Positions 14,086 to 63,238 of a stretch of 64,000 nt of DNA are shown one piece after another. Numbering within the stretch: position 1 is the stretch's first letter; each line of letters opens with the position of its first letter. Origin of the DNA: Phyllosticta citribraziliensis (lineage: Eukaryota); contig NW_027117348.1 of assembly GCF_038025025.1 (NCBI RefSeq), positions 1,426,001 to 1,490,000 on the forward strand. Direction: 5' to 3'. The translations under genes and the position numbers were made by a program. The notes under the pieces were generated by a model. The model ran no database searches, had not been told where the DNA came from, and saw only the letters and a program-made list of their open reading frames with translations.

Positions 14086-17000
14086 ATGGGTAACCCAAAC
14101 ATGGATTGGTCTCCGGTCCGAAAGACGGGCAGTGCAAGACCAAGGGAGAGTCCGTCCTACTCTCCTTATCGAACCGACGACCAAGGAGCATACGACTCGG
14201 ATGGCTACAGGCCAGGTAGACCAGGACCGTACCCAATCCCGAATAAACCTCCATTCGCAAAGTTTCCCCCCCGGCGGCCCTTCGAGCCAACTCCAACTGA
14301 TCGCTATCGACATGACGACTTCCACCAGCCCAGGAGCCCTCCTCAACGCATGGAAGATGGTCATCAAAAGGGCAGTCCTCGTCCTTCCGGCCGTTTTGAA
14401 GACTTGAATCGGCCATGCAACAATCGCCCTCGCCCGTTCCAAGACAGCCCACCAAGCAGCCCTCGACCTCCTCGACCAAGCGGTCGTTCTGATCCTTTCG
14501 ACAACGGGTACTTTGACTCTCGTCCGCAACCAAGTGGATCAGCGGACAGGAAAAGGTTTATGGAGGCCCCAAACTTCGTTTCCAACAGCAGCTTGACGTG
14601 GAAGAAGCCGACGAGCCGTGACTCTTCTCGGTCCGAGTCAAGCCGTCAGCCCTTCAATGGCTCAGGGAGTGAAGATCCACCACGATCAATTGGCCCTGGA
14701 TCAAACCTCGTATCTGGGTCCGCAGGAATGACATTTGCAGAGCAGGACTTCCAAAGACAACTTGTCGAAGGAAGAAGTTGGGTGGTCACTAGAGAAGAGC
14801 TACCTGCGCTCCTGAGGCTCCCTCACATTTTCATTTCCGCCAGACACGTACCATACAGGTCTACGAACCCGCCTCATATTGCGAGGTTACTGCGCTCAGC
14901 ATACAAACAGGTTAGGGTGCAAGGCTGCGTTGATGGGTACTATGTTAGTTTTCGGAATAACAGCGACGGCAGAGCTGGGCTACGGCGCTGTGTGGAGAGG
15001 CACGACGGTACACTTCTCTTCAATAAGTTTGAAATGGTCATGGAGCCTCACCTTCCTGGTTTGGACAGCTCGTCATCGCAAGATTTGACGCCTGTTACCC
15101 ACGCACCGCACCAGCAGAGCGCCGAGATGCTGGAACGCAATCTGCCTCCAGCCCCGACTGCTTCTCCCGCTCAGACGACCACGTTGGGTCGACACAGTCT
15201 GCGCCCAGATGCTCTCCAAAAGCCAAGCGACAATATCTCTAGTGAACGAAATCTGCCTCTGAACAATCCTCACCTGCAAAGCGCCGAGATGTCGAGCCAG
15301 CACAATCTCTCCCCAAATGTTCCTCCCACCAGGACCATGAAACCTCCCGATCGTAACCCGAACACCCTTCGCCAGCAGATCGTCAAGACATCAAACCAAC
15401 TCATTCTGGAAACGAGTCCTCTTCACCAGCAGAGCTCCAGAACCCCGCGCCAACAACTCGATGAAGCTGAGGAAATTGCAATTCAGGGTGCTGCGTCACG
15501 CGCGACGCCCACCGAGAAGGTCTCGAATTTCCTCCAACAGTGTAAAAATAGCGGGGTGGTGGCCATCTTCGATCATGCCGAGGCGTGGGGCTTGCCCAAG
15601 GGCCGCCCAGGCTGGAGTGTCAAGCTGAAAGTGGACGATCTCGAGATTGGCGATCCCGGCCCTCACCCAAGCAAGATGGATGCCAGCGCCGCCATCGTTG
15701 GTCGCGGTTTCCGCCTTTTGGAGCAGGCACTGCAGGCACAGGATTGCAAATCACCAGTCAAGCTTGAGAGCCTTGAAACTGCGGAGGCTTCGACAGATGC
15801 TACGGTCGGGTCAGCTGCAACCAATGCAAATATACGCAGGCTCCAAGAAGACATAAACTCGCGTCTTTCAAGGGCAAAGGAGCTGCAAGATTGGTTGGTC
15901 GCGAATCCAACAGCCGAAGAGGCGACGATTGAAAGAAGCCGTGGTTATCACAATGACATCATGGACAGAGTTGAGGGAATCCGGCAGGAGATTATCAAGC
16001 TTGGTGGTGTTCCAGCAAGCGCAGAGGGTCATGGCGCTGATGAATCGTCGCCGCCTGTAGTGAGAGAACCTACTCCACTCGCCTCTGCAGACAAGGGGCC
16101 TGGTGTTGTTCCGGCGAGCGCAGAGGAGGATCACGGCACTGATGGATTGCCCACACCTTTAGCAAAAGAACCTCCTCCACTCGCCTCTGCAGATAATGAG
16201 TCTGGTGCTTTTTCGGCGAGCGCAGAGGAGAGTCACGGCGCCGATGAATCATCGCCACCTCTAGTCAAGCAGCCTCCTCCCCTCGCCTCTGCAGACATTG
16301 AGCCTGGTGTCGATCACCAATTGCTCACATCTCGGGACTCGATCTCTGCCCCAGACCATGGACAAGCACGACCCATCAATGAGCCGACCAGAAGGAAAAG
16401 CACCGCAACACTTTCGGATGCTTCGGAAACCAGCTCGAAAACCAAGGTAACTCGATGTGCATACTGCAAAACCAAGCATTTTCCGTCGTACAACCCGAGG
16501 AAAACTTGTTCTGGCTGTCGAAGGGCGTACTGTAGCTCCTGCTGGAAAACAGAGTCAGCGAGGGCACTAGACAGGTAAGATATCACTACTAATACGTATT
16601 ACATGGCTGACCTTTCGGCAGTAATGCTGAACCAGAGGGCTGCCGACACTGTGTCAAGACCAACACTCGAATGCTCCCGATGAACCATGAGAGCCACCCA
16701 GCCACCGAACAACTCATTGCTCCCAAGACATCTGAGCCAAAAGTCACGACGCCTCCGGTGGATATCCCTCAACCAGCTCATTCTGCAGAAGTCGTGACAC
16801 GCGAAGCACCTTCTCCAATACGCCATGACGAGCGCCTGGAAAGCGAACACAGAGAAGGACCAGCAGAGGCTTTAAGCCAGGTCGAGAAGAGGCTTCTGGA
16901 ACGCCGGGGATCAAACCGCGACGAAGCTCCAGCAGCTTCTCCAAGTCATGCAGAGACACGAATGCTTCCAGATCCCGAGCAAGCTGAACGCAGTGATGCT

Positions 17001-18671
17001 CCAGCAGCATCTCCAAGTCACACAGGCACAGGAACTATTCCAGGTCGCGTGCAAACTGACCGCACGGAGGCTTCAGAGCTGTATCTGAAGAAGCTTTCAG
17101 GCATCAATGAGCTGTCGTGGTCCGACTTGTTGGGATTTGCGCTTGCGGACAATGGAAACCGTGGAATGACCTGGAACGAGATTTCAGCCTGGATGTATGA
17201 CAACTTCCGGGACAACCGAAGAAACATACAGTCATCAAGCATCCAAGCTACTTTGTCCGGGCAAAAAACTCGGTTTTCTCATGTCGTGAACTCCAAACCT
17301 GCCCGATATTACGCAACAGATGCATTCGCCCAGAATTGCACAAAGCGTCTCTTGCAACTGCGGGCACAAGCCCGCTATATTGTAAAGCTTCCTCTCACGC
17401 AATCCCACAAGCTGGGAGTTGAGAAATCAGCCATCCAGAGCAATGAGGCGACAGGTCCTCAGGCCACTCGAAACATGGATGGTGCCCAAGAGACGAACGA
17501 AAAGAACCTCAAGCGGCCCAGAGAAGAGAGCCACGAGGAGATGCCAAGCCCAAAGGCGCCTCGGAAGTTTGCCTACAGAGCTCGAAAGTCGGCAAGCAAT
17601 GGCAAACGTCTTCAACCACCTGTGAAACAGGAGTCTGTGAGGATCTCAGCTCCTGCCTCGGGACCCGATGGAATTTCTTCAGCGGGTTCTCAGTCTGAGG
17701 CAACGCCTGGGGCTGTTGAAAACCAGGGATTTGGATCTGCGCCGAAGAGTGTCGAGGTCATCAGCCTGAGTTCGGATAGCTCTTCGGACGAGTCGAGACC
17801 TGTCTCTCCGGCGCCTTTATACGCTCCCCGCGTCTCGTTGCGATCTGTCTCTCCGGAACCTGTCTCTGCTCCGCCCGACTTGTCGCGACCTGTCTCTCCG
17901 GCATCTGACTCTGACCCCCCTGACTCGCCGCAAGACCCTCGCATGGCTTTCGCCTTGGCCACTTTGGAAAAGGCCAAAAGCCTGCCTGGGTCACGTCCAG
18001 TGACCATGCCAGAGGACTTGGTCGTCAACGGTTTCTCAGAGGAATTTCAGGACAGACTTACGGCCCGCTACAAGGCCGAATTCTGCAGCGCTCCAACGAT
18101 AGTCAAAGACCTGGCTAAAGAGGCGCCCGCATTCTGTCCCCCGCCCTTTGACCGTGAAGCCAAGATTGCAGAGATCAAGGCGCGTCCTAAACGCAAAGCG
18201 CGTCTCGAAGCGCTCAACGCGAAAGTGGACGCTCCGCGCCTGTTGCACGCGCGCCAGGAGCGTTCGCGCGACGCCATCCACAAGGAAGAACATCACCCTC
18301 TCCCACCTGCGTACAAGGCGCCGCCCCCAGGCGCGTGGTCCTTCGGCTTCGGCACAACACACGACTTGACGGTATCGCAGGAGACGGACGACGTGGACAT
18401 GGACGCGGACAACAAAGCGCCACGACGCAAGGAGAGACGCCACTTCGAGGTAGACGACACGGATGTGGACATGGATGCGGACAACGAGGCGCCGCAGCCC
18501 AAGGAGAAAGACTACGTCGAGACGGTCGAGGAGTGGCTCGGGGGCCCGCCGGCCGACAGCGTGACGTACATGATTACCGACAGAGGCAAGCTGGCTTTTC
18601 GCGAGAAGGCAGCGCCGAATAGGGACGGCAGGATGCCGCGGCCCCGCAAGGTGTGGGTTGTCCCCGACTGA
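14086..18671 (+). CDS. Large (~1,500 aa) putative nuclear protein: Set1-type RRM (SET_assoc), dsRBD-like, PHD-like finger and forkhead-like regions
   Basis: ORFs 14086..16578 and 16671..18671 join in frame across intron 16575..16621 (gtaaga..gctgac..cag). The join completes CAYC..CSGCRRAYCSSC..GCRHC. Domain calls were made by motif recognition. Confidence 0.8.
16003..16305 (+). repeat. Intragenic tandem repeat, 3 x 99-102 bp (33-34 aa)
   Basis: Units start at 16003, 16102 and 16204, each G..(P/S)ASAE..HG.D....P....P.PLASAD. Confidence 0.9.
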
Positions 18672-56672: not shown

Positions 56673-57172
56673 ATGTTCCATTCGGGTAGGAGACGAGTCT
56701 CAGATGATACCTCGAGTGGGGAGACTGACGATGATGCGTCCAAGCCAGAAGTCTATAGCATGCTAGTGCTCAAAAATTGGATTTGGTAATCCGGAGTTGG
56801 GAGGCAGGGCTGCATGGTCACCAGTGTTCGTCCAAGGTTTAGTATTCATGGCAAACACATGGCTCGCAATTGAGTCGACCGTCTGAAAGCACTGGATGCA
56901 ATGTGACAAGCAGCCACATGTTGCCTAAATTACGCCCCACTTTTACAAGGCATCATCCGCAATGGCTCCATTGCTATCACTAGAGGCACCACTACTGACA
57001 TTTCAATGAACCAAGTGTGTAAAGGCTGGGTTGATTTCAACTGACAGAATCGCGTGGTTGCCTTGGAGTGTTTGATATATTTACTGTAGTCTTGGCCTTC
57101 AATCCATACCACTGTCCAATCCACCTCACATTCTCTCAATTATTTCTTCATATCTTGATATCAAGCTTCAGA

Positions 57173-58004
57173 ATGGGCAAGCGCGTCTCCAGAAACAACA
57201 AGAAAACCATCGACAAGATCAAACGCCTTCTCAAGTGCGCAACACAAACCCAAGCTCCTCAGGATATAAGTTGCTGACGCTCGCAGGGGCCCCACCGTCA
57301 ACCTCATCGTTGGCCGCGAGCAGCAAGCATTCACCGTCCATCGAACGCTTCTCTGCCGACAATCCCGCTTCTTCATCAACGCATTCACCGGGCCATGGAG
57401 CGAAGGACGCACCGGAGCCATGAGACTGCCCGACGTCGAGCCAGAAATCATGAGCGCCTTTGTCGACTGGCTCTACACCGCAAAGCCCCCGCATGCCGAA
57501 ATCGCCCTCGACCTCTACGTCTTCGCCGACTGCTATCAGATGCACCGGCTGAAGAACGCCATTGTGACGTCTCTCTACGCCCATTGGACCGAGTGGAACG
57601 ACATCCTGGGGCAAGTCGAGGTCAAGATGGACACGCTCCCCGGCGCGCAGCAACTCCACTTTGCTATGGACAACCTTCCAGAGACGAGTCCGCTGCTGCA
57701 ACTCATGTTCGCCATTCACGCCAATTGGAGCGGCAAGATGCCCGAGGGCCACGACTGGGAGGAGCTCAAGGACGCCATGTGTCGCTTGGTGAGGTACTTG
57801 CCGTGGAGGCCCAGGGATCTCAAGACAAAGTCTGGCTACTTGGAGGAGGAGGAGGGGTTGGGGAAGAGGTGGCGGGGGGCTAGGGAAGACGTTGTCAGGG
57901 CTCATGTCTGCAAGAAGATGAAGGTAGAGGACGATGAGGACGATGCTGGGTTTGCGTTGGCTGAATGCCGAATAGGAACGATCACCAATGCCACTTCTTT
58001 GTAG
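57173..58004 (+). CDS. BTB/POZ-domain protein (copy A), one intron near the 5' end
   Basis: GPTVNLIVGREQQAFTVHRTLLCRQSRFFINAFTGPWSEG..MRLPDVEPEIMSAFVDWLY..LYVFADCYQMHRLKN. Intron gtgcgc..gctgac..cag. Confidence 0.88.
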
Positions 58005-58349
58005 CTTCGAAACCGGCAACCAAGGAGCCATCGCGCAAAGGCGTGTTGAAATTCATCAGCAGTAGACGGCAGCATCCATTTGCGGCTAGATCTTCAGAAT
58101 CTCTTCGTCGTTTCTCTCCCAGATATTTGGCTGCTCTTCCTTTCTGCTTTCCAATCACTGCTCCAGTGGCTATTTTTTCCAAGAGTGTTCATCTGTAGAC
58201 AATTTAAGAAGCCTCTCGCTTTTCTGCCTCGTGGGGTGGCGGGACTGGCGGAGCGGCGGACATGGCTTCACGTTTGCTGGGATTGCTGCATATCACCGCT
58301 GGTAATTAGGACTTCTGAATTACGCTGCACCCTGTCTGGAAAGCGGACT

Positions 58350-58750
58350 GATCCGCGTCTTTCTGCGGCTGTTTTGCTTGCGTTTTGCTGAAGAAAAAGA
58401 AGCATCTTTTACGCTTCCGGAATCTGATTCCGAGGTCGTCGAAAGCTTCATCATCTGGGCATACAATAAAGGCCTCAGTAGTGGATGGGCTAGGAGCAGA
58501 GTGATTATTTGTTTAGCACCTACGAAAGCCAGTTCGATCGTACTCATTGTCAGGCAGTACATTCAACGGCGTGTAGAGGCCCCGTCTCAGGGATCTTGCC
58601 GCCGCTGCCGTTCAGGTCCTGACTTAACACTGAGGTATTGCTTTAACACTGCGGCGCGGGACCACCGCCTGCTGCGCCCTCCTCCGGACCATGAGACTCC
58701 CCCATACCACCGTTCTGGCCATCTCTTTCGACTGGGCGCTTCGGTTACCT
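58350..58750 (+). pseudogene. Degenerate BTB fragments
   Basis: RFAEEKEASFTLPESDSEVVESFIIWAYN matches the BTB core of the neighbours, and RTMRLPH..FDW near 58690 resembles copy A. No coherent gene model could be built. Confidence 0.55.
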
Positions 58751-59066
58751 CTCGCACCACTGTCTTGGCACGGCAGCGCACACTCTACTATATAATCCGG
58801 ATCGCCATGACAACAACCTCCAGCTCCTCTTCCTCTTCGCCTTCTACGAGCTCCACTTGACGACCAAGGGGCTTCCTTCTCATCTTCTCTGAGATTTGCG
58901 ATCACAGCGCCTCGCAACATCCATATCCTCGCTTGAACATCCAAAGGTACCTCGAAGTGCGCGTGTCCTCCCTCAAAAATACAGACACTCGCTAACACAA
59001 ACCCCATTTTCTAGCTCGGATCGCGTATTCCGTCTCATTCTTGCGTCGTTTCCCGGAGTCTCCAAC

Positions 59067-59857
59067 ATGAGTCAACAAATTTCGACTGTCGTCTACACTG
59101 CGGGTTGTTTCAAGCCAACGTGAGTGGTTCACCCCGAGGTCTACATTGAGAAAGGCACTAACGTCAGCACAGTGGACCCAAGGTCAAATTGGTGGTTGGC
59201 CAGGAGCGCAAGGTTTTCACCGCTCACTGCGAACTCCTCTCTCGTCACTCGCCGGTCTTCCGTAGCGCCCTCACCGGACCCTGGACCGAAGCGACGACCC
59301 GCACTCTCGAGCTCCCAGACTCCGATCCTGACGTTGTCGATGTCTTCCTCCTCTGGGCGTACAAAGGCTACTTGCTCGGTCCCATGTTCGCCTTTGAGCT
59401 TTACGTGTTCTCAGACAAGTACCAGATCCCGCTCTTGAAGATCGACGCGGCGCACACCCTGTACTGGCACTGGACCAGCTGGAACCACGCCTCCAAGAAG
59501 CAGATCGTCGTCCAGGAGGCCGTTCCCGAAGCCGAGACCGTTCAATTTGCCATCGACAATCTTCCGCAGACAAACCGTATCCTCCAGCTTCTGCGCGTCG
59601 TTGTAAACCTCTGGGATGGCCAAGGAGTCGAGTACCAGGAGTGGGTGCAGATGCGCCTTGCCAGGACACGTCTTTTCCAGACCGGTCCTTACGGACCTGT
59701 TGACAGGATCGCCAAGGAGCACATTTACACCGCCGATGCGAAGCACAAGGGCTCGTTCATCAACTGTCCCCGTGCTGCTACTACCACGCTGAAGGCATGT
59801 TACAACTGTCTTTGGCTGGCTGGTGAGAAGCCTTGGCTCGTCAACGACGAGAATTGA
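59067..59857 (+). CDS. BTB/POZ-domain protein (copy B) with Cys-containing C-terminal module, one intron (59120..59172)
   Basis: GPKVKLVVGQERKVFTAHCELLSRHSPVFRSALTGPWTEA..LELPDSDPDVVDVFLLWAY..LYVFSDKYQIPLLK. Intron gtgagt..actaac..cag. Confidence 0.88.
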
Positions 59858-60114
59858 GAGCGCACTGGTGCAATTCGGGGACAAACTTGTCTCGAGGGAA
59901 GGAAGCCATCGCTGGCATGAAGGTTGTGGGATTCGGAGGACAGGTCAACGGTCCCAGGGCAACGAGCAGCCAGACGAATCGGAAAGGCAGAGGAGGGGGC
60001 GGGTTGGCGGGGCTTCTGGCATATGGTTCTACGAATAAGAGCCACGACCAATTGTATAAAAACTGCGGCTTGAATTGGGGTAGGGAGTTGGTAGGAGTAT
60101 AAAAGCAACAAAAA

Positions 60115-60423
60115 CTGCCATCGACAATCTTTCAGAGAGCAACCGCATCGTCCAGCTCCATCCACTATCTCTGGGCCGGTCGCCTCGCTGACCGTCGCTA
60201 CACTACAGCGATGAGGCGTGCTCGGTCCCGCTTGTTTGCCACCGTCGCCTTCGGTCCTCTTGATAAGATTGGACCAGCCGACACTTACTCCAACGATGCC
60301 AAGCCCAAGGGTCCATTCCTTGGCTGTCCCTATGCCGCAAAGAGCACCAAAAATATGATTGCGTGCTATGACTGTCTTTGGCTGGGTCAGGCGAAGCCAT
60401 GGCTCGTCAACAAGAGGGCCTGA
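60115..60423 (+). pseudogene. BTB-less C-terminal cassette 1 (open 70-aa module 60211..60423)
   Basis: Collinear with the last ~100 codons of copy B. A frameshifting deletion lies upstream of the conserved Met, and the module itself is intact. Confidence 0.75.
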
Positions 60424-60659
60424 GGGCTCGAGGGGCACTGGTTGGGGGTCTCTTTCGGAAGAAGGGAACAGCAGTGGGCTACCTGCAGGCTTGGGGAAAA
60501 GCAGCGGATGGCTAGACAAATTCGAAGGGTGAAGGAAGGTGGCGGGCTGTCTGGTCCTCTGGCATTGAGTTCGTTCCACCGAAAGGAACTCAACCAAGGT
60601 GTAGCATTTGGAGCGAGTATTGGGATCGAAAAAGGGTTGGAGTAGTATAGAAACAGAAA

Positions 60660-61193
60660 ATTGCCGTCGATAGTCTCCCAGAGACAGACCGCGTCCTTCA
60701 GCTTCTCCGCGTCGTCCACAATCTCTGGGTCTTTCGCCTTTCTGGCCGTCGTTATACTCCAGCGATGAGGGGCGCCAGGTCCCGCTTGTTCTCAACTACG
60801 CCGTACGGCCCCGTCGACACTAGGACTCAGCGCATCGCTCCGGCGGTGATCCTGGACGCGAAGATCATTCAATTTGCCCTCGATAACCTTCCAGAGAACG
60901 ACTGGATCATTCAGCTGATCCGTGTTGTCCACGCTCTCTAGGAGTGTCGTCTCTCCGACCGCCGTGATACTCGAGTGATGAGGACCGCCAGGGCCCGCTT
61001 GTTCTCTACGACACGGTACAGCCCCACGGATAGGATTGGGTCTGCCTATTCCTACTACGCCGCTGACACCAAGCACAAGGGCGCGATTCTTGGTTGTCCG
61101 CATGCCTTGACGTCTCAGATTGACATCAAGGCGTGCTTCAACTGCCTGTCGCTCGCCGAAGGGAAGCCCTGGCTGATGAACGGAGCGCTCTAA
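60660..61193 (+). pseudogene. BTB-less C-terminal cassettes 2 (truncated) and 3, fused in one frame; open module 60975..61193
   Basis: AVDSLPETDRVLQLLRVVHNLW..MRGARSRLFSTTPYGPVD runs into QFALDNLPENDWIIQLIRVVHAL*..MRTARARLF..KACFNCLSLAEGKPWLMN, with a single TAG at 60939. Confidence 0.75.
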
Positions 61194-62242
61194 GCGCGGG
61201 ATGGATTCGGAAATCGCTCTCCACCTAGCGTCTGGTGTGCGAAGGTTTTGGATGGACAAATTGGAACTTCCGACTTGTACGTGGTTTGACAAAAGGGAAG
61301 ACAGCAGGAGGTGAGGGGACAACAAGAGGATGTGGGAGGAAAATGGGCTAGGAAACGCGGAAAGCTATGCTGTCAGAGTAGTTGAACAGGCGGAGGAAGG
61401 TGGCGGGCAACAGGAACTAAGATCAAATGTACAATAGCCGGAGCTTGGATTGAGATAGAAAATTGGTTGGTGTAGCAGCGCAATCAAGAGACAATGCCTT
61501 GATTGCAGACCGATGCTCCACCGAAGAGGTAGCGATTGTGATTGCAACTCTCCTCGCTGCCGCCACTTTGCCCTTATACACATCGGTAGGAAGTCTTGAC
61601 CTTTTGCAGTCGTTGCTCCTTGTACGCGCTGGCGAATCTACCAAAGCTCGAGGAACAGGGCGTGTCTTGCTTGACTTTTACGTTTGGAGATCGTGGCCAC
61701 CAGATGCTGCAGCTCGGATGTTGCGAGCCCTCAAGCGCCAACCCCGGGATAAGAGCACTCCTTACTTCTTGGACGAGCTGACCTCAGCAACTGAAGCGGA
61801 AAGATCAAAAGAGCCTCAGAGCTACCACGAGAAAATCAAGGCGCGGGACGCCTTCGCGTGTCAGACCATTGACGCCTGCTTTTGGCTGTCGCGGAGGAAA
61901 TCCCGGGGGAAGAATGAGACGTTGGCGATGACAAGAGTGCGGCGAGCTGCAGGGCCGGCGGCGTTATGGAGACGGAGTGCGCCATGGTGGCTTCGGTCTA
62001 CGAGATAAGGATGAGCATGAGGTGGCGACTCTCTTGCGGCTTTGGGTGCTCGGTGGCAGTGAAGGGCTGCTGATGGTGTTTGATTTCGTTTCCAGGCCCT
62101 TCGATGAGTTACGGAGTTGAAGACAAGCATGTTCGCGTTTGGATCCAGGCTGATTCAGACGCCTTGCAAGTTTGGCCAGAACGGCCCCAGGTTTTGCGAC
62201 ACTCGGCAAGGTAGGCAGTCGATGGAATGGAGGTATACGTCT

Positions 62243-63067
62243 TCATTTGCTCGCAAAGCTCCGCGTCTCCATGCTCTCGCCATCGCCCCAGATTTCCTTG
62301 CTCTCCTGCTCCACGCCCTTCATCGCCTTTGCCACCTCGTCCAACTTTGCAACGACATCCAAGACGCCCGCGTTGACTCTTTGAAAGTAGCGGTCGTTGG
62401 CTTCCCTCCTCTTGCGCGCCAACAAGATGTCATTCTCCGTATCTTGCTCCAGCTGGCTCTTGACGCTCGCCTCGGTTCCGCTCCTCGGTCTGCCAGTGAC
62501 GACAGGGGCCGCCGTCCCAAGCCTCTCGTTGCGGTCCGACGCAAGCAAATTGGAAGTGCCCAAGGGTCTTGCTTCCTCCCGCTTGGCGGCCGCGTCTTGC
62601 TGCTCGTCCTCGGCCTCAGTCTTTGCCCACGCCTGAGCAAGTGCAATCTGGGCGCTGCGCAAGTCTTCCAGCGCCTTGGAATGGCCAGGCCTGAAGACGT
62701 GCGTGCCGTGAATGGCGCTGAGTTCGACTTCTTCCAGCGTGTTTTGCATTTCGGCCCAGATGGCGTCGGTGCGCTCGGCACTCTGCTGCTCTGCTTCGTA
62801 GTGCTGCGTCTGCGCAGTGCGCTGCTCCGCCCGGATGGATCTGGTGCTGGGGGCAAGGTTGCCGTCAGCGTCGGTCACGGCCTCGCCTAGCTTGGATCGC
62901 TGGCGGAGTAGCGGCGCGCGGCCACTTGATTGAGCGCCAGCGCCAGTTCCAGAGGGCAGCGCCATTGATGTGTTTGATGCATTGCGGGAGGGAGGTCCAA
63001 TGAACAGGGAGGGCGCTGGCGGCCGGTGTTGGCTGTGACTCCGTTCAAGAGGCGCTTGGTGAGACAT
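62243..63067 (-). CDS. Conserved fungal coiled-coil hypothetical protein (possibly DUF5315-like)
   Basis: 274-aa ATG-initiated ORF with coding-like codons and helical blocks IWAEMQNTLEEVELSA, ALEDLRSAQIALAQAW and ANDRYFQRVNAGVLDVVAKLDEVA. The family name is from memory and tentative. Confidence 0.78.
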   Translation of the reverse strand: MSHQAPLERSHSQHRPPAPSLFIGPPSRNASNTSMALPSGTGAGAQSSGRAPLLRQRSKLGEAVTDADGNLAPSTRSIRAEQRTAQTQHYEAEQQSAERTDAIWAEMQNTLEEVELSAIHGTHVFRPGHSKALEDLRSAQIALAQAWAKTEAEDEQQDAAAKREEARPLGTSNLLASDRNERLGTAAPVVTGRPRSGTEASVKSQLEQDTENDILLARKRREANDRYFQRVNAGVLDVVAKLDEVAKAMKGVEQESKEIWGDGESMETRSFASK

Positions 63068-63238
63068 GTTGTAAGGAAACAGAACCCGGCCAGATCATCC
63101 GTCCACAAAATGTAGAAAACTGTCCTCTTTCTGACTTCTCCGCCTCATGGTAGGTGGCAGCGTAATGCAGTTGATGGTCAGGGTCAAGGGCGGACGTCAA
63201 GAGTCGCGGGGAAGCGTTGATCCGAAGCGAGGCCGCCG

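Follow-up and report, generated by a model that had tools for sequence, protein, structure and literature searches.

Truncated C-terminal copies downstream of a BTB gene in Phyllosticta citribraziliensis: probable remnants of birth-and-death turnover in a tandem gene cluster

Background

In the portions of the literature drawn on here, four described systems come closest to a series of orphan gene ends lying behind a full-length gene. Grass MATH-BTB arrays have expanded by birth-and-death evolution and hold tandem genes, pseudogenes (many of them transcribed), truncated open reading frames (ORFs) and single-domain leftovers (PMC4091423). Bacterial orphan cdiA-CT/cdiI and rhs-CT modules carry tips that are mostly unrelated past a conserved junction motif, have immunity genes, and are reloaded at the level of strains (PMC3150448). 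The msg-I family of Pneumocystis comprises ~80 copies served by one single-copy expression site; a 33-bp junction element is conserved among them, and 94% of the alleles are open (PMC10622565). MicroProteins are small single-domain proteins related to a larger protein (PMC7534434). The locus considered here lies in a 64,000-nucleotide stretch of Phyllosticta citribraziliensis DNA (the window; contig NW_027117348.1, positions 1,426,001 to 1,490,000, with all positions below counted from the first letter of the window unless a contig is named), where three 5'-truncated homologues of the 3' end of an intact BTB gene, gene B (59067..59857, + strand), follow that gene and are designated U1, U2 and U3.

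An initial annotation of this DNA, made from the letters alone, had proposed that the C-terminal portion of gene B and its spacer recur downstream as a cassette reservoir that diversifies B by recombination, or as a set of independently expressed mini-proteins. Comparison with relatives shows that U1-U3 are not copies of B's own tail, and the locus is likely a tandem Phyllosticta BTB cluster in birth-and-death decay, accompanied by ordinary recombination. The remnants are probably without a present coding role, their conserved look being inherited from the time when they belonged to whole genes. Read in this way, the locus is a well-resolved example of ordinary gene turnover, with duplication, reciprocal loss between species, junction copying and a mosaic, in a little-studied fungal BTB family. 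The open-access literature (supplements aside) yielded no description of the locus, of the module, or of fungal BTB orphan tails, and the word BTB is absent from the main text of PMC9073689 and PMC12506662.

Structure of the array

Gene B encodes a BTB domain, a predicted helical BACK-like extension that includes the stretch referred to as the arm, and a Cys-containing C-terminal module. The repeat family that includes its 3' end has register points at 59548 (in gene B), 60116, 60662 and 60875, with spacings of 568, 546 and 213 nt, and a sensitive self-comparison of the array gave 62-76% identity across 155-280 nt. Alignments between spacers exceeded all 200 shuffles in each of the three pairs, with scores of 146 for S0-S1 (shuffle maximum 84), 110 for S0-S3 (99) and 96 for S1-S3 (87.5), and the recurrence of B's 3' end and of its spacer was borne out. 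The starts first given, about 60115, 60660 and 60870, agree with the register points, although U3 really begins at 60819, ~19 codons earlier in register than the other two units.

U1 (60116..60423, + strand) consists of an arm resembling that of the D-type paralogue described below, with an 8-nt deletion after ~60157, and an open 70-codon module (60211-60423, ATG at 60211) that leans to the B lineage past about codon 10. U2 (60662..60818, + strand) has U1's 5' junction, an open arm and 17 module codons, in all ~52 codons (35 of arm and 17 of module); it has no spacer of its own and is fused in frame to U3, forming a 58-codon ORF (60765-60941). U3 (60819..61193, + strand) is the 3' part of a D-type paralogue from which the BTB domain has been deleted, with a TAG at 60939-60941 and an open 71-codon module from the ATG at 60978 (60978-61193). 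A lesion or cut is thus present in all three units, and in U1 and U3 the lesion lies upstream of the module Met. Pairwise identity among the B, U1 and U3 modules is 54, 54 and 49%, in accord with the early estimate of about half, and a whole-genome search with the U3 module returned only B, U1 and U3 (3 matches from 3 candidates). No BTB domain was found in 59460-62240 by homology searches and a purpose-built BTB hidden Markov model (HMM), again as first described.

U1 and U2 begin at the identical base, each behind a homologous spacer, and across this junction 59969-60236 aligns with 60511-60790 at 67% over 280 nt (E 3e-24). The common junction and its spacing, from which duplication of module plus spacer as a unit had first been deduced, are thus confirmed, with the correction that U2 is short in content and lacks a spacer of its own. 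Spacer S0, the 3' flank of B (59858..60115, + strand), carries TGTA at 60053, TATAAAAA at 60055 and TATAAAAG at 60098; S1 (60424..60661, + strand) is nearest to S0 and has TATAGAAA at 60646; and S3 (61194..61500, + strand) is a more distant homologue of both, with no unit behind it. At the place matching the U1/U2 junction the U3 flank has TGCC, yet with 6 of 10 ungapped matches this is a weak hint of microhomology. Repeat-induced point mutation left no sign, the dinucleotide indices being 0.66 and 1.18 in the array and 0.61 and 1.24 in the window.

Origin of the tails in full-length paralogues

The evidence that the tails descend from a separate gene comes from related species. A D-type protein, having a BTB domain and module at full length, is present in P. 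citriasiana, P. citricarpa and P. paracitricarpa (P0006-P0009). In P. citrichinaensis, the closest relative of P. citribraziliensis (PMC9073689, as far as that source is drawn on here), the BTB domain of the predicted protein P0005 precedes a stretch (residues 130-177) in which 42 of 48 residues are identical to the start of U3; the same 48 residues match P0006 at 27 positions and B at 16. Past this stretch P0005 is identical to B at 63 of 80 positions, with the arm repeated and the end falling before the Cys module, so that it looks broken or mis-modelled, and its join of D-type and B-type sequence may reflect either a true fusion or a model drawn across two genes. Under a scheme of a single BTB gene with interchangeable tails, the BTB domain of P0005 would be expected to be the orthologue of that of B, P. 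citrichinaensis being the closest relative. This is not so: per 100 residues the BTB identities are 65 for B-P0005, 68 for B-P0006 and 74 for P0005-P0006, and in the BTB tree P0005 groups at 93% with P0006 and P0007, that is, with the protein of more distant species. B and D are therefore distinct paralogues, each of full length, and U3 is what is left of a D gene after loss of its front.

The tree of arms is consistent with this, as U3 groups with the first arm of P0005 (76%), U1 with U2 (69%), and B and the second arm of P0005 are set apart at 94%. Full-length paralogues thus survive among the relatives with lineage-specific loss, P0005-P0009 being of D type and P0164 (the annotated P. citribraziliensis protein) of B type. 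U3 retains 29 of the 36 module residues common to B and P0006, and its departures from these common residues include P>R, G>S and W>S. In P. capitalensis, gene A (the BTB paralogue upstream of B) and one B/D-like gene appear to be adjacent, judging from consecutive accession numbers in two assemblies, and decay of this B/D-like gene may be under way in that lineage as well (P0010, P0167). Among the P. capitalensis-type proteins, P0010 has a stop right at the start of the module, and P0167 keeps a module with CxCxxC and KPWL behind an unrelated N-terminus that suggests a frameshift. Within the searches made, the Cys module was found in Phyllosticta only.

Recombination and the U1 mosaic

A test for gene-conversion tracts had been suggested at the outset, and recombination was found in U1. 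Up to about codon 10 of the module, 30 informative sites in U1 favour U3 and 12 favour B; beyond it 34 favour B and 20 favour U3 (maximum chi-square 11.2, permutation p 0.014). Trees of the two parts agree, in that the U1 module groups with B (80-82%) and the U1 arm with the D type, and the U1 spacer is closest to that of B. A single unequal crossover or conversion event copying the spacer-arm junction explains the common start, the homologous spacers and the mosaic; since dS between B and U1 (1.1) exceeds that of the arm (0.37), the B-like part may have come from another paralogue. To judge from these patterns, C-terminal parts have been exchanged by ordinary recombination in U1, and possibly in the predicted P0005 also. 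Two short states are common to the B-type and D-type arms within each species (Q here, N in P0005), and may reflect conversion or parallel change.

From these observations a history of the cluster can be proposed. An ancestral gene gave rise to the B-type and D-type full-length paralogues, of which the D type was duplicated further, as the trees and the relatives show. The downstream copies would then have lost their promoters and BTB domains through deletions in this lineage. One such deletion would have joined a 3' spacer to a D-type arm, and the resulting junction may have been copied by unequal crossover or conversion to give the common start of U1 and U2 and the D/B mosaic of U1; the mosaic itself is observed, and the order of events is the likely one. 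The end of U2 and the front of U3 were presumably lost in one later deletion, as suggested by the in-frame fusion and by P0005.

BTB arrays elsewhere in the genome

Genome-wide BTB matches (64 of 70 candidates scored) include many that are clustered on contigs C6, C10 and C11, and eight segments of ~260 kb in all, a part of the BTB arrays, were scanned for remnants. Besides U1-U3, these eight segments held three 5'-truncated copies lying 513-893 nt behind BTB genes, showing that the layout is recurrent in this genome. Two are on C6 (locus L065), at G000:C6 ~205135-205450, with a stop and a frameshift, and at ~206855-207400, with two stops. The gene at ~206018 on C6 ends early, and its remnant retains a CxxC...CxxC tail. 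The third, at G000:C11:1291753-1292010 on the - strand (L030/L031), is an orphan that repeats the 3' part of the adjacent upstream BTB gene, with 86 open codons and without the BTB domain; it has 64% DNA identity, an omega (dN/dS, the ratio of nonsynonymous to synonymous rates) of 0.25 at dS 1.5, a partly repeated spacer, and no usable in-frame Met near its start. A tail can therefore stay open even where nothing would allow its translation.

The count of orphans leaves out a non-coding repeat at C6 374202/374801. Elsewhere on C6, G000:C6:225609-226331 (L067) contains internal tandem repeats with spacings of ~204-420 nt downstream of a weak BTB match, and G000:C6:217396-217657 and 222318-222579 form a 262-nt repeat with 91% identity, 4.9 kb apart, that is much younger than the surrounding BTB duplications.

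Selection and decay

The initial annotation had also called for dN/dS of module and arm to be compared. Module omega over codons 12 to the end was 0.35, 0.20 and 0.09, with dS of 1.1, 2.4 and 4.4, and whole-module values were 0.05-0.18, pairwise maximum-likelihood values with dS above ~5 being saturated. At module dS of 1.1-4.4, low dN/dS is mostly a record of the working full-length genes and tells little of what followed truncation. The arm of U1 and U2, which dates their common junction, gave an omega of 0.73 (interval 0.3-1.7, dS 0.37) and is near neutral. Changes in its 90 sites were 9 nonsynonymous and 4 synonymous, plus the deletion, on the U1 side, 6 and 2 on the U2 side, and one ambiguous. 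Between the U3 arm and P0005, 6 of 48 residues differ, with a branch estimate of ~0.05 substitutions per site, and in simulation 28-51% of 71-codon frames survive intact at ~0.05 substitutions per site. As a caution, an open frame and a low pairwise dN/dS in an orphan tail need not point to present function.

Simple full-length paralogues in relatives were one of the outcomes that the initial annotation had named as speaking against its own proposal, along with modules near neutrality, no transcripts and no exchange of C-termini. This largely describes what was found, in that the full-length paralogue exists, but module dN/dS is below 1, RNA covers the units, and C-terminal exchange has occurred.

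RNA cover of the locus

Four runs (X1, X2, X4 and X7), of eight in which the stretch occurs, were compared with the locus as unstranded contigs with one depth per contig; X1 was classed as RNA by its spliced intron and X2 by the unevenness of its depth, and the type of X4 and X7 is uncertain. The runs were picked by this stretch, so that cover does not rank genes, and the absence of B from the X2, X4 and X7 contigs does not mean that B is silent. In X1 the intron of gene A is spliced (contig depth 643), B is covered at depth 28, and U1-U3 lie in one unspliced contig from 59988 at depth 929, with a length reaching ~63070. X2 has one contig from 60144 to ~63150 at depth 40, X4 has pieces over 60176-60568 only, and X7 over 59943-60138 only. 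The only splice joint within 57000-61700 is the gene A intron. Antisense read-through of the convergent DUF5315 gene downstream and a sense transcript from TATAAAAG both fit the U1-U3 contigs. The contigs link 59950-62243 to the DUF5315 gene and, if from the minus strand, would represent a 3' extension of more than 2 kb antisense to U1-U3.

Alternative explanations

Several points weigh against simple decay of the array. P0005 is a predicted protein, compared at the protein level; the arm-tree supports for U1 + U2 and U3 + P0005 are modest (69-76%); and RNA contigs lie over U1-U3 in both RNA-like runs, X2 having no cover of B. The other points bear on U1, which may have been kept as a small gene, with TATAAAAG as a TATA element, a start near 60140, and translation from the ATG at 60211. 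The product, a Cys-containing micro-protein of 70 residues, could then act as a competitor of B or of a partner at a common target, without a cullin link. The word TATAAAAG is one of three non-repeat TATAWAWR words on the + strand of the 64 kb, the first ATG past it is the U1 module Met, with G at -3, and the start of the X2 contig and the range of the X4 pieces are in keeping with such a transcript. The U1 frame is intact despite ~0.15 substitutions per site in its arm, for which simulated neutral survival is 0.025-0.13; its omega to B (0.35) has an interval of 0.16-0.6 over codons 12 to the end; it retains three Cys and KPWL; and it keeps 28 of the 36 module residues common to B and P0006 (p 0.24 or 0.008, by the history assumed). 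A 3' flank, however, would be expected to end in A/T-rich words, and a similar word without a usable Met occurs at the C11 orphan. The unstranded contigs run into the convergent gene, so that antisense read-through fits as well, and the X7 piece lies upstream of the proposed start. Retention in the U1 module relative to its arm (28/36 versus 10/17) is not significant (p 0.20), and the module Met falls inside a predicted helix (158-173, pLDDT <50) and is not conserved in P. capitalensis-type proteins. A module-only protein was not seen among the best 150 of 374 matches, in a search with a full-length profile (252 positions) under which distant module-only relatives may rank below the listed matches, and none of five small-ORF sequences was present in the collection searched. 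Searching longer proteins with the module alignment gave 0 of 934 candidates but missed the module-bearing P0006 and so carries no weight, and a metagenome scan gave two loci from 176 candidate stretches, both weak BTB matches that were not used. With six remnants examined, the exception of U1 is suggestive, not strong. Of the independently expressed mini-proteins first envisaged, U1 alone is still a candidate, and an unlikely one; if translated and under selection, it would represent a micro-protein gene in the course of arising from a truncated adaptor.

A cassette reservoir, in which orphans are kept so that recombination through a common arm loads a new C-terminal module on B, would be in line with the common junction of U1 and U2, the recombinant nature of U1, the joining in P0005 of a D-type BTB domain and arm to a B-type arm and partial module, and a 42-nt tract at 83% identity between B and U1. 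The arms, however, are 53-55% identical to B in DNA and have lesions inside them, where a reservoir calls for a conserved in-frame homology arm, and from the lesion to the Met (the last 45 nt of the arm and the first module codons) only 11-14 of 30 positions per window match B. Since the best tract is upstream of the U1 deletion and the U3 stop, a crossover there would give a truncated B, and a route through U2 would run into the stop of U3. The modules are homologues of one family and not unrelated tips, the U3 tail once had a BTB domain of its own, as its D paralogue still does in relatives, and P0005 has a paralogous BTB domain, a repeated arm and no Cys module. No joint between B and a unit and no sequence difference was seen in the four runs, among which X1 alone covers B and in which contigs drop rare variants. 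With arms that are dead and too divergent from B, the reservoir is mostly unsupported and is considered very improbable. Much the same low probability is given to a broader proposal, that Phyllosticta BTB arrays renew substrate-binding tips through selected trimmed tails, some micro-proteins from a truncation-made TATA (as in U1), and linker crossovers; hints of tip crossovers in the helical linker come from the mosaic nature of U1 and from the D-B join in P. citrichinaensis. If true, such a system would be a fungal counterpart of polymorphic-tip systems, directed at ubiquitin-ligase adaptors, and a new diversification mechanism for fungal ubiquitin ligases. Least probable of all is the use of U1-U3 as alternative last exons, the 5' part of B being spliced to a downstream module. 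A branch-like GCTGAC and a TACAG right before the module Met of U1, and a TCCAG in U2, can be read from the sequence, but a candidate donor in B (59605) or the donor of its first intron joins these acceptors out of frame (by hand), and the U1-U3 contigs are unspliced.

Genes A and B and neighbouring features

Residues 1-17 and 19-245 of gene B match the annotated protein P0164, and its BTB domain scores 31.5 bits with PF00651, over the cut-off of 20.5. The predicted intron (59120-59172) is canonical-looking as read from the sequence and is needed by the annotated protein; it is unspliced in X1 (depth 28). The structural model of B has a pLDDT of 60 overall and below 50 past residue 153, including the module, with helices within 124-173, and matches the BTB-BACK region of SPOP (Foldseek E 8e-6, ~170 columns). 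From this likeness of fold, and from the common role of BTB proteins as cullin-3 adaptors, B probably works as a SPOP-like BTB adaptor, putatively for cullin-3, with a Cys module that would bind partners. An ESM Atlas search with the module gave a best feature score of 0.79 and a best TM score of 0.40, and no lead.

Upstream, gene A (57173..58004, + strand) is an intact BTB paralogue (Pfam BTB E 2e-11, intron 57235-57286) whose BTB domain is identical to that of B at 43 of 100 residues. Between A and B lies a 3'-truncated, BTB-only remnant (58357..58482, + strand), detected by tblastn with P0005 (E 1e-5 within a 4.4-kb region) and by the same purpose-built HMM (23 bits), so that the cluster holds both 5' and 3' leftovers. 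In sequence this remnant is D-like; it may derive from the 5' end of a D copy that preceded B, an arrangement consistent with the D-then-B order of P0005. In another frame, 58352-58402 resembles the Cys module (E 0.005), a match put down to chance, and DUF3716 matches (12-13 bits, under the cut-off of 22) were rejected. A 184-residue ORF 3' of U3 has no Pfam match, and beyond it the convergent DUF5315 gene occupies 62243..63070 on the - strand (PF17242, E 2e-23). Elsewhere in the window, a 102-nt repeat (x3) at 16024-16329 and a 45-nt repeat (x3) at 17787-17927 are multiples of three and probably encode protein repeats.

Comparison with known systems

As far as the sources cited at the outset go, the Phyllosticta array most resembles the grass MATH-BTB arrays in having clustered tandem BTB paralogues mixed with truncated leftovers. 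It differs from them in that there is no MATH domain and the variable part is a short C-terminal Cys module, and in that the remnants are 0.2-0.6 kb apart, two of them with a common junction. The B model is like the BTB/3-box/BACK portion of SPOP (PDB 8dwu, 4j8z, 3htm), with a BTB domain and then a helical extension that includes the arm; identity, however, is ~20%, TM scores are 0.39-0.47 by query, and the module has no confident fold. With the orphans of cdiA-CT and rhs-CT, as portrayed in the cited account, the array shares 5'-truncated C-terminal pieces behind a full-length gene and some upstream homology, but its tips are paralogues with 49-54% identity, there is no partner gene, the arms are lesioned, and full-length relatives of the U3 type exist; the spacers are homologous 3' flanks, in place of the immunity genes of Rhs/CdiA orphans. 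Pneumocystis msg-I, a fungal case, likewise has promoter-less copies and mosaic genes in the description drawn on, whereas here there are three remnants, all lesioned or cut, and no conserved junction element (the register tract is 67-83% identical). MicroProteins, as outlined in the source cited, would be the model for a putative translated U1, although the module is not a known interaction domain.

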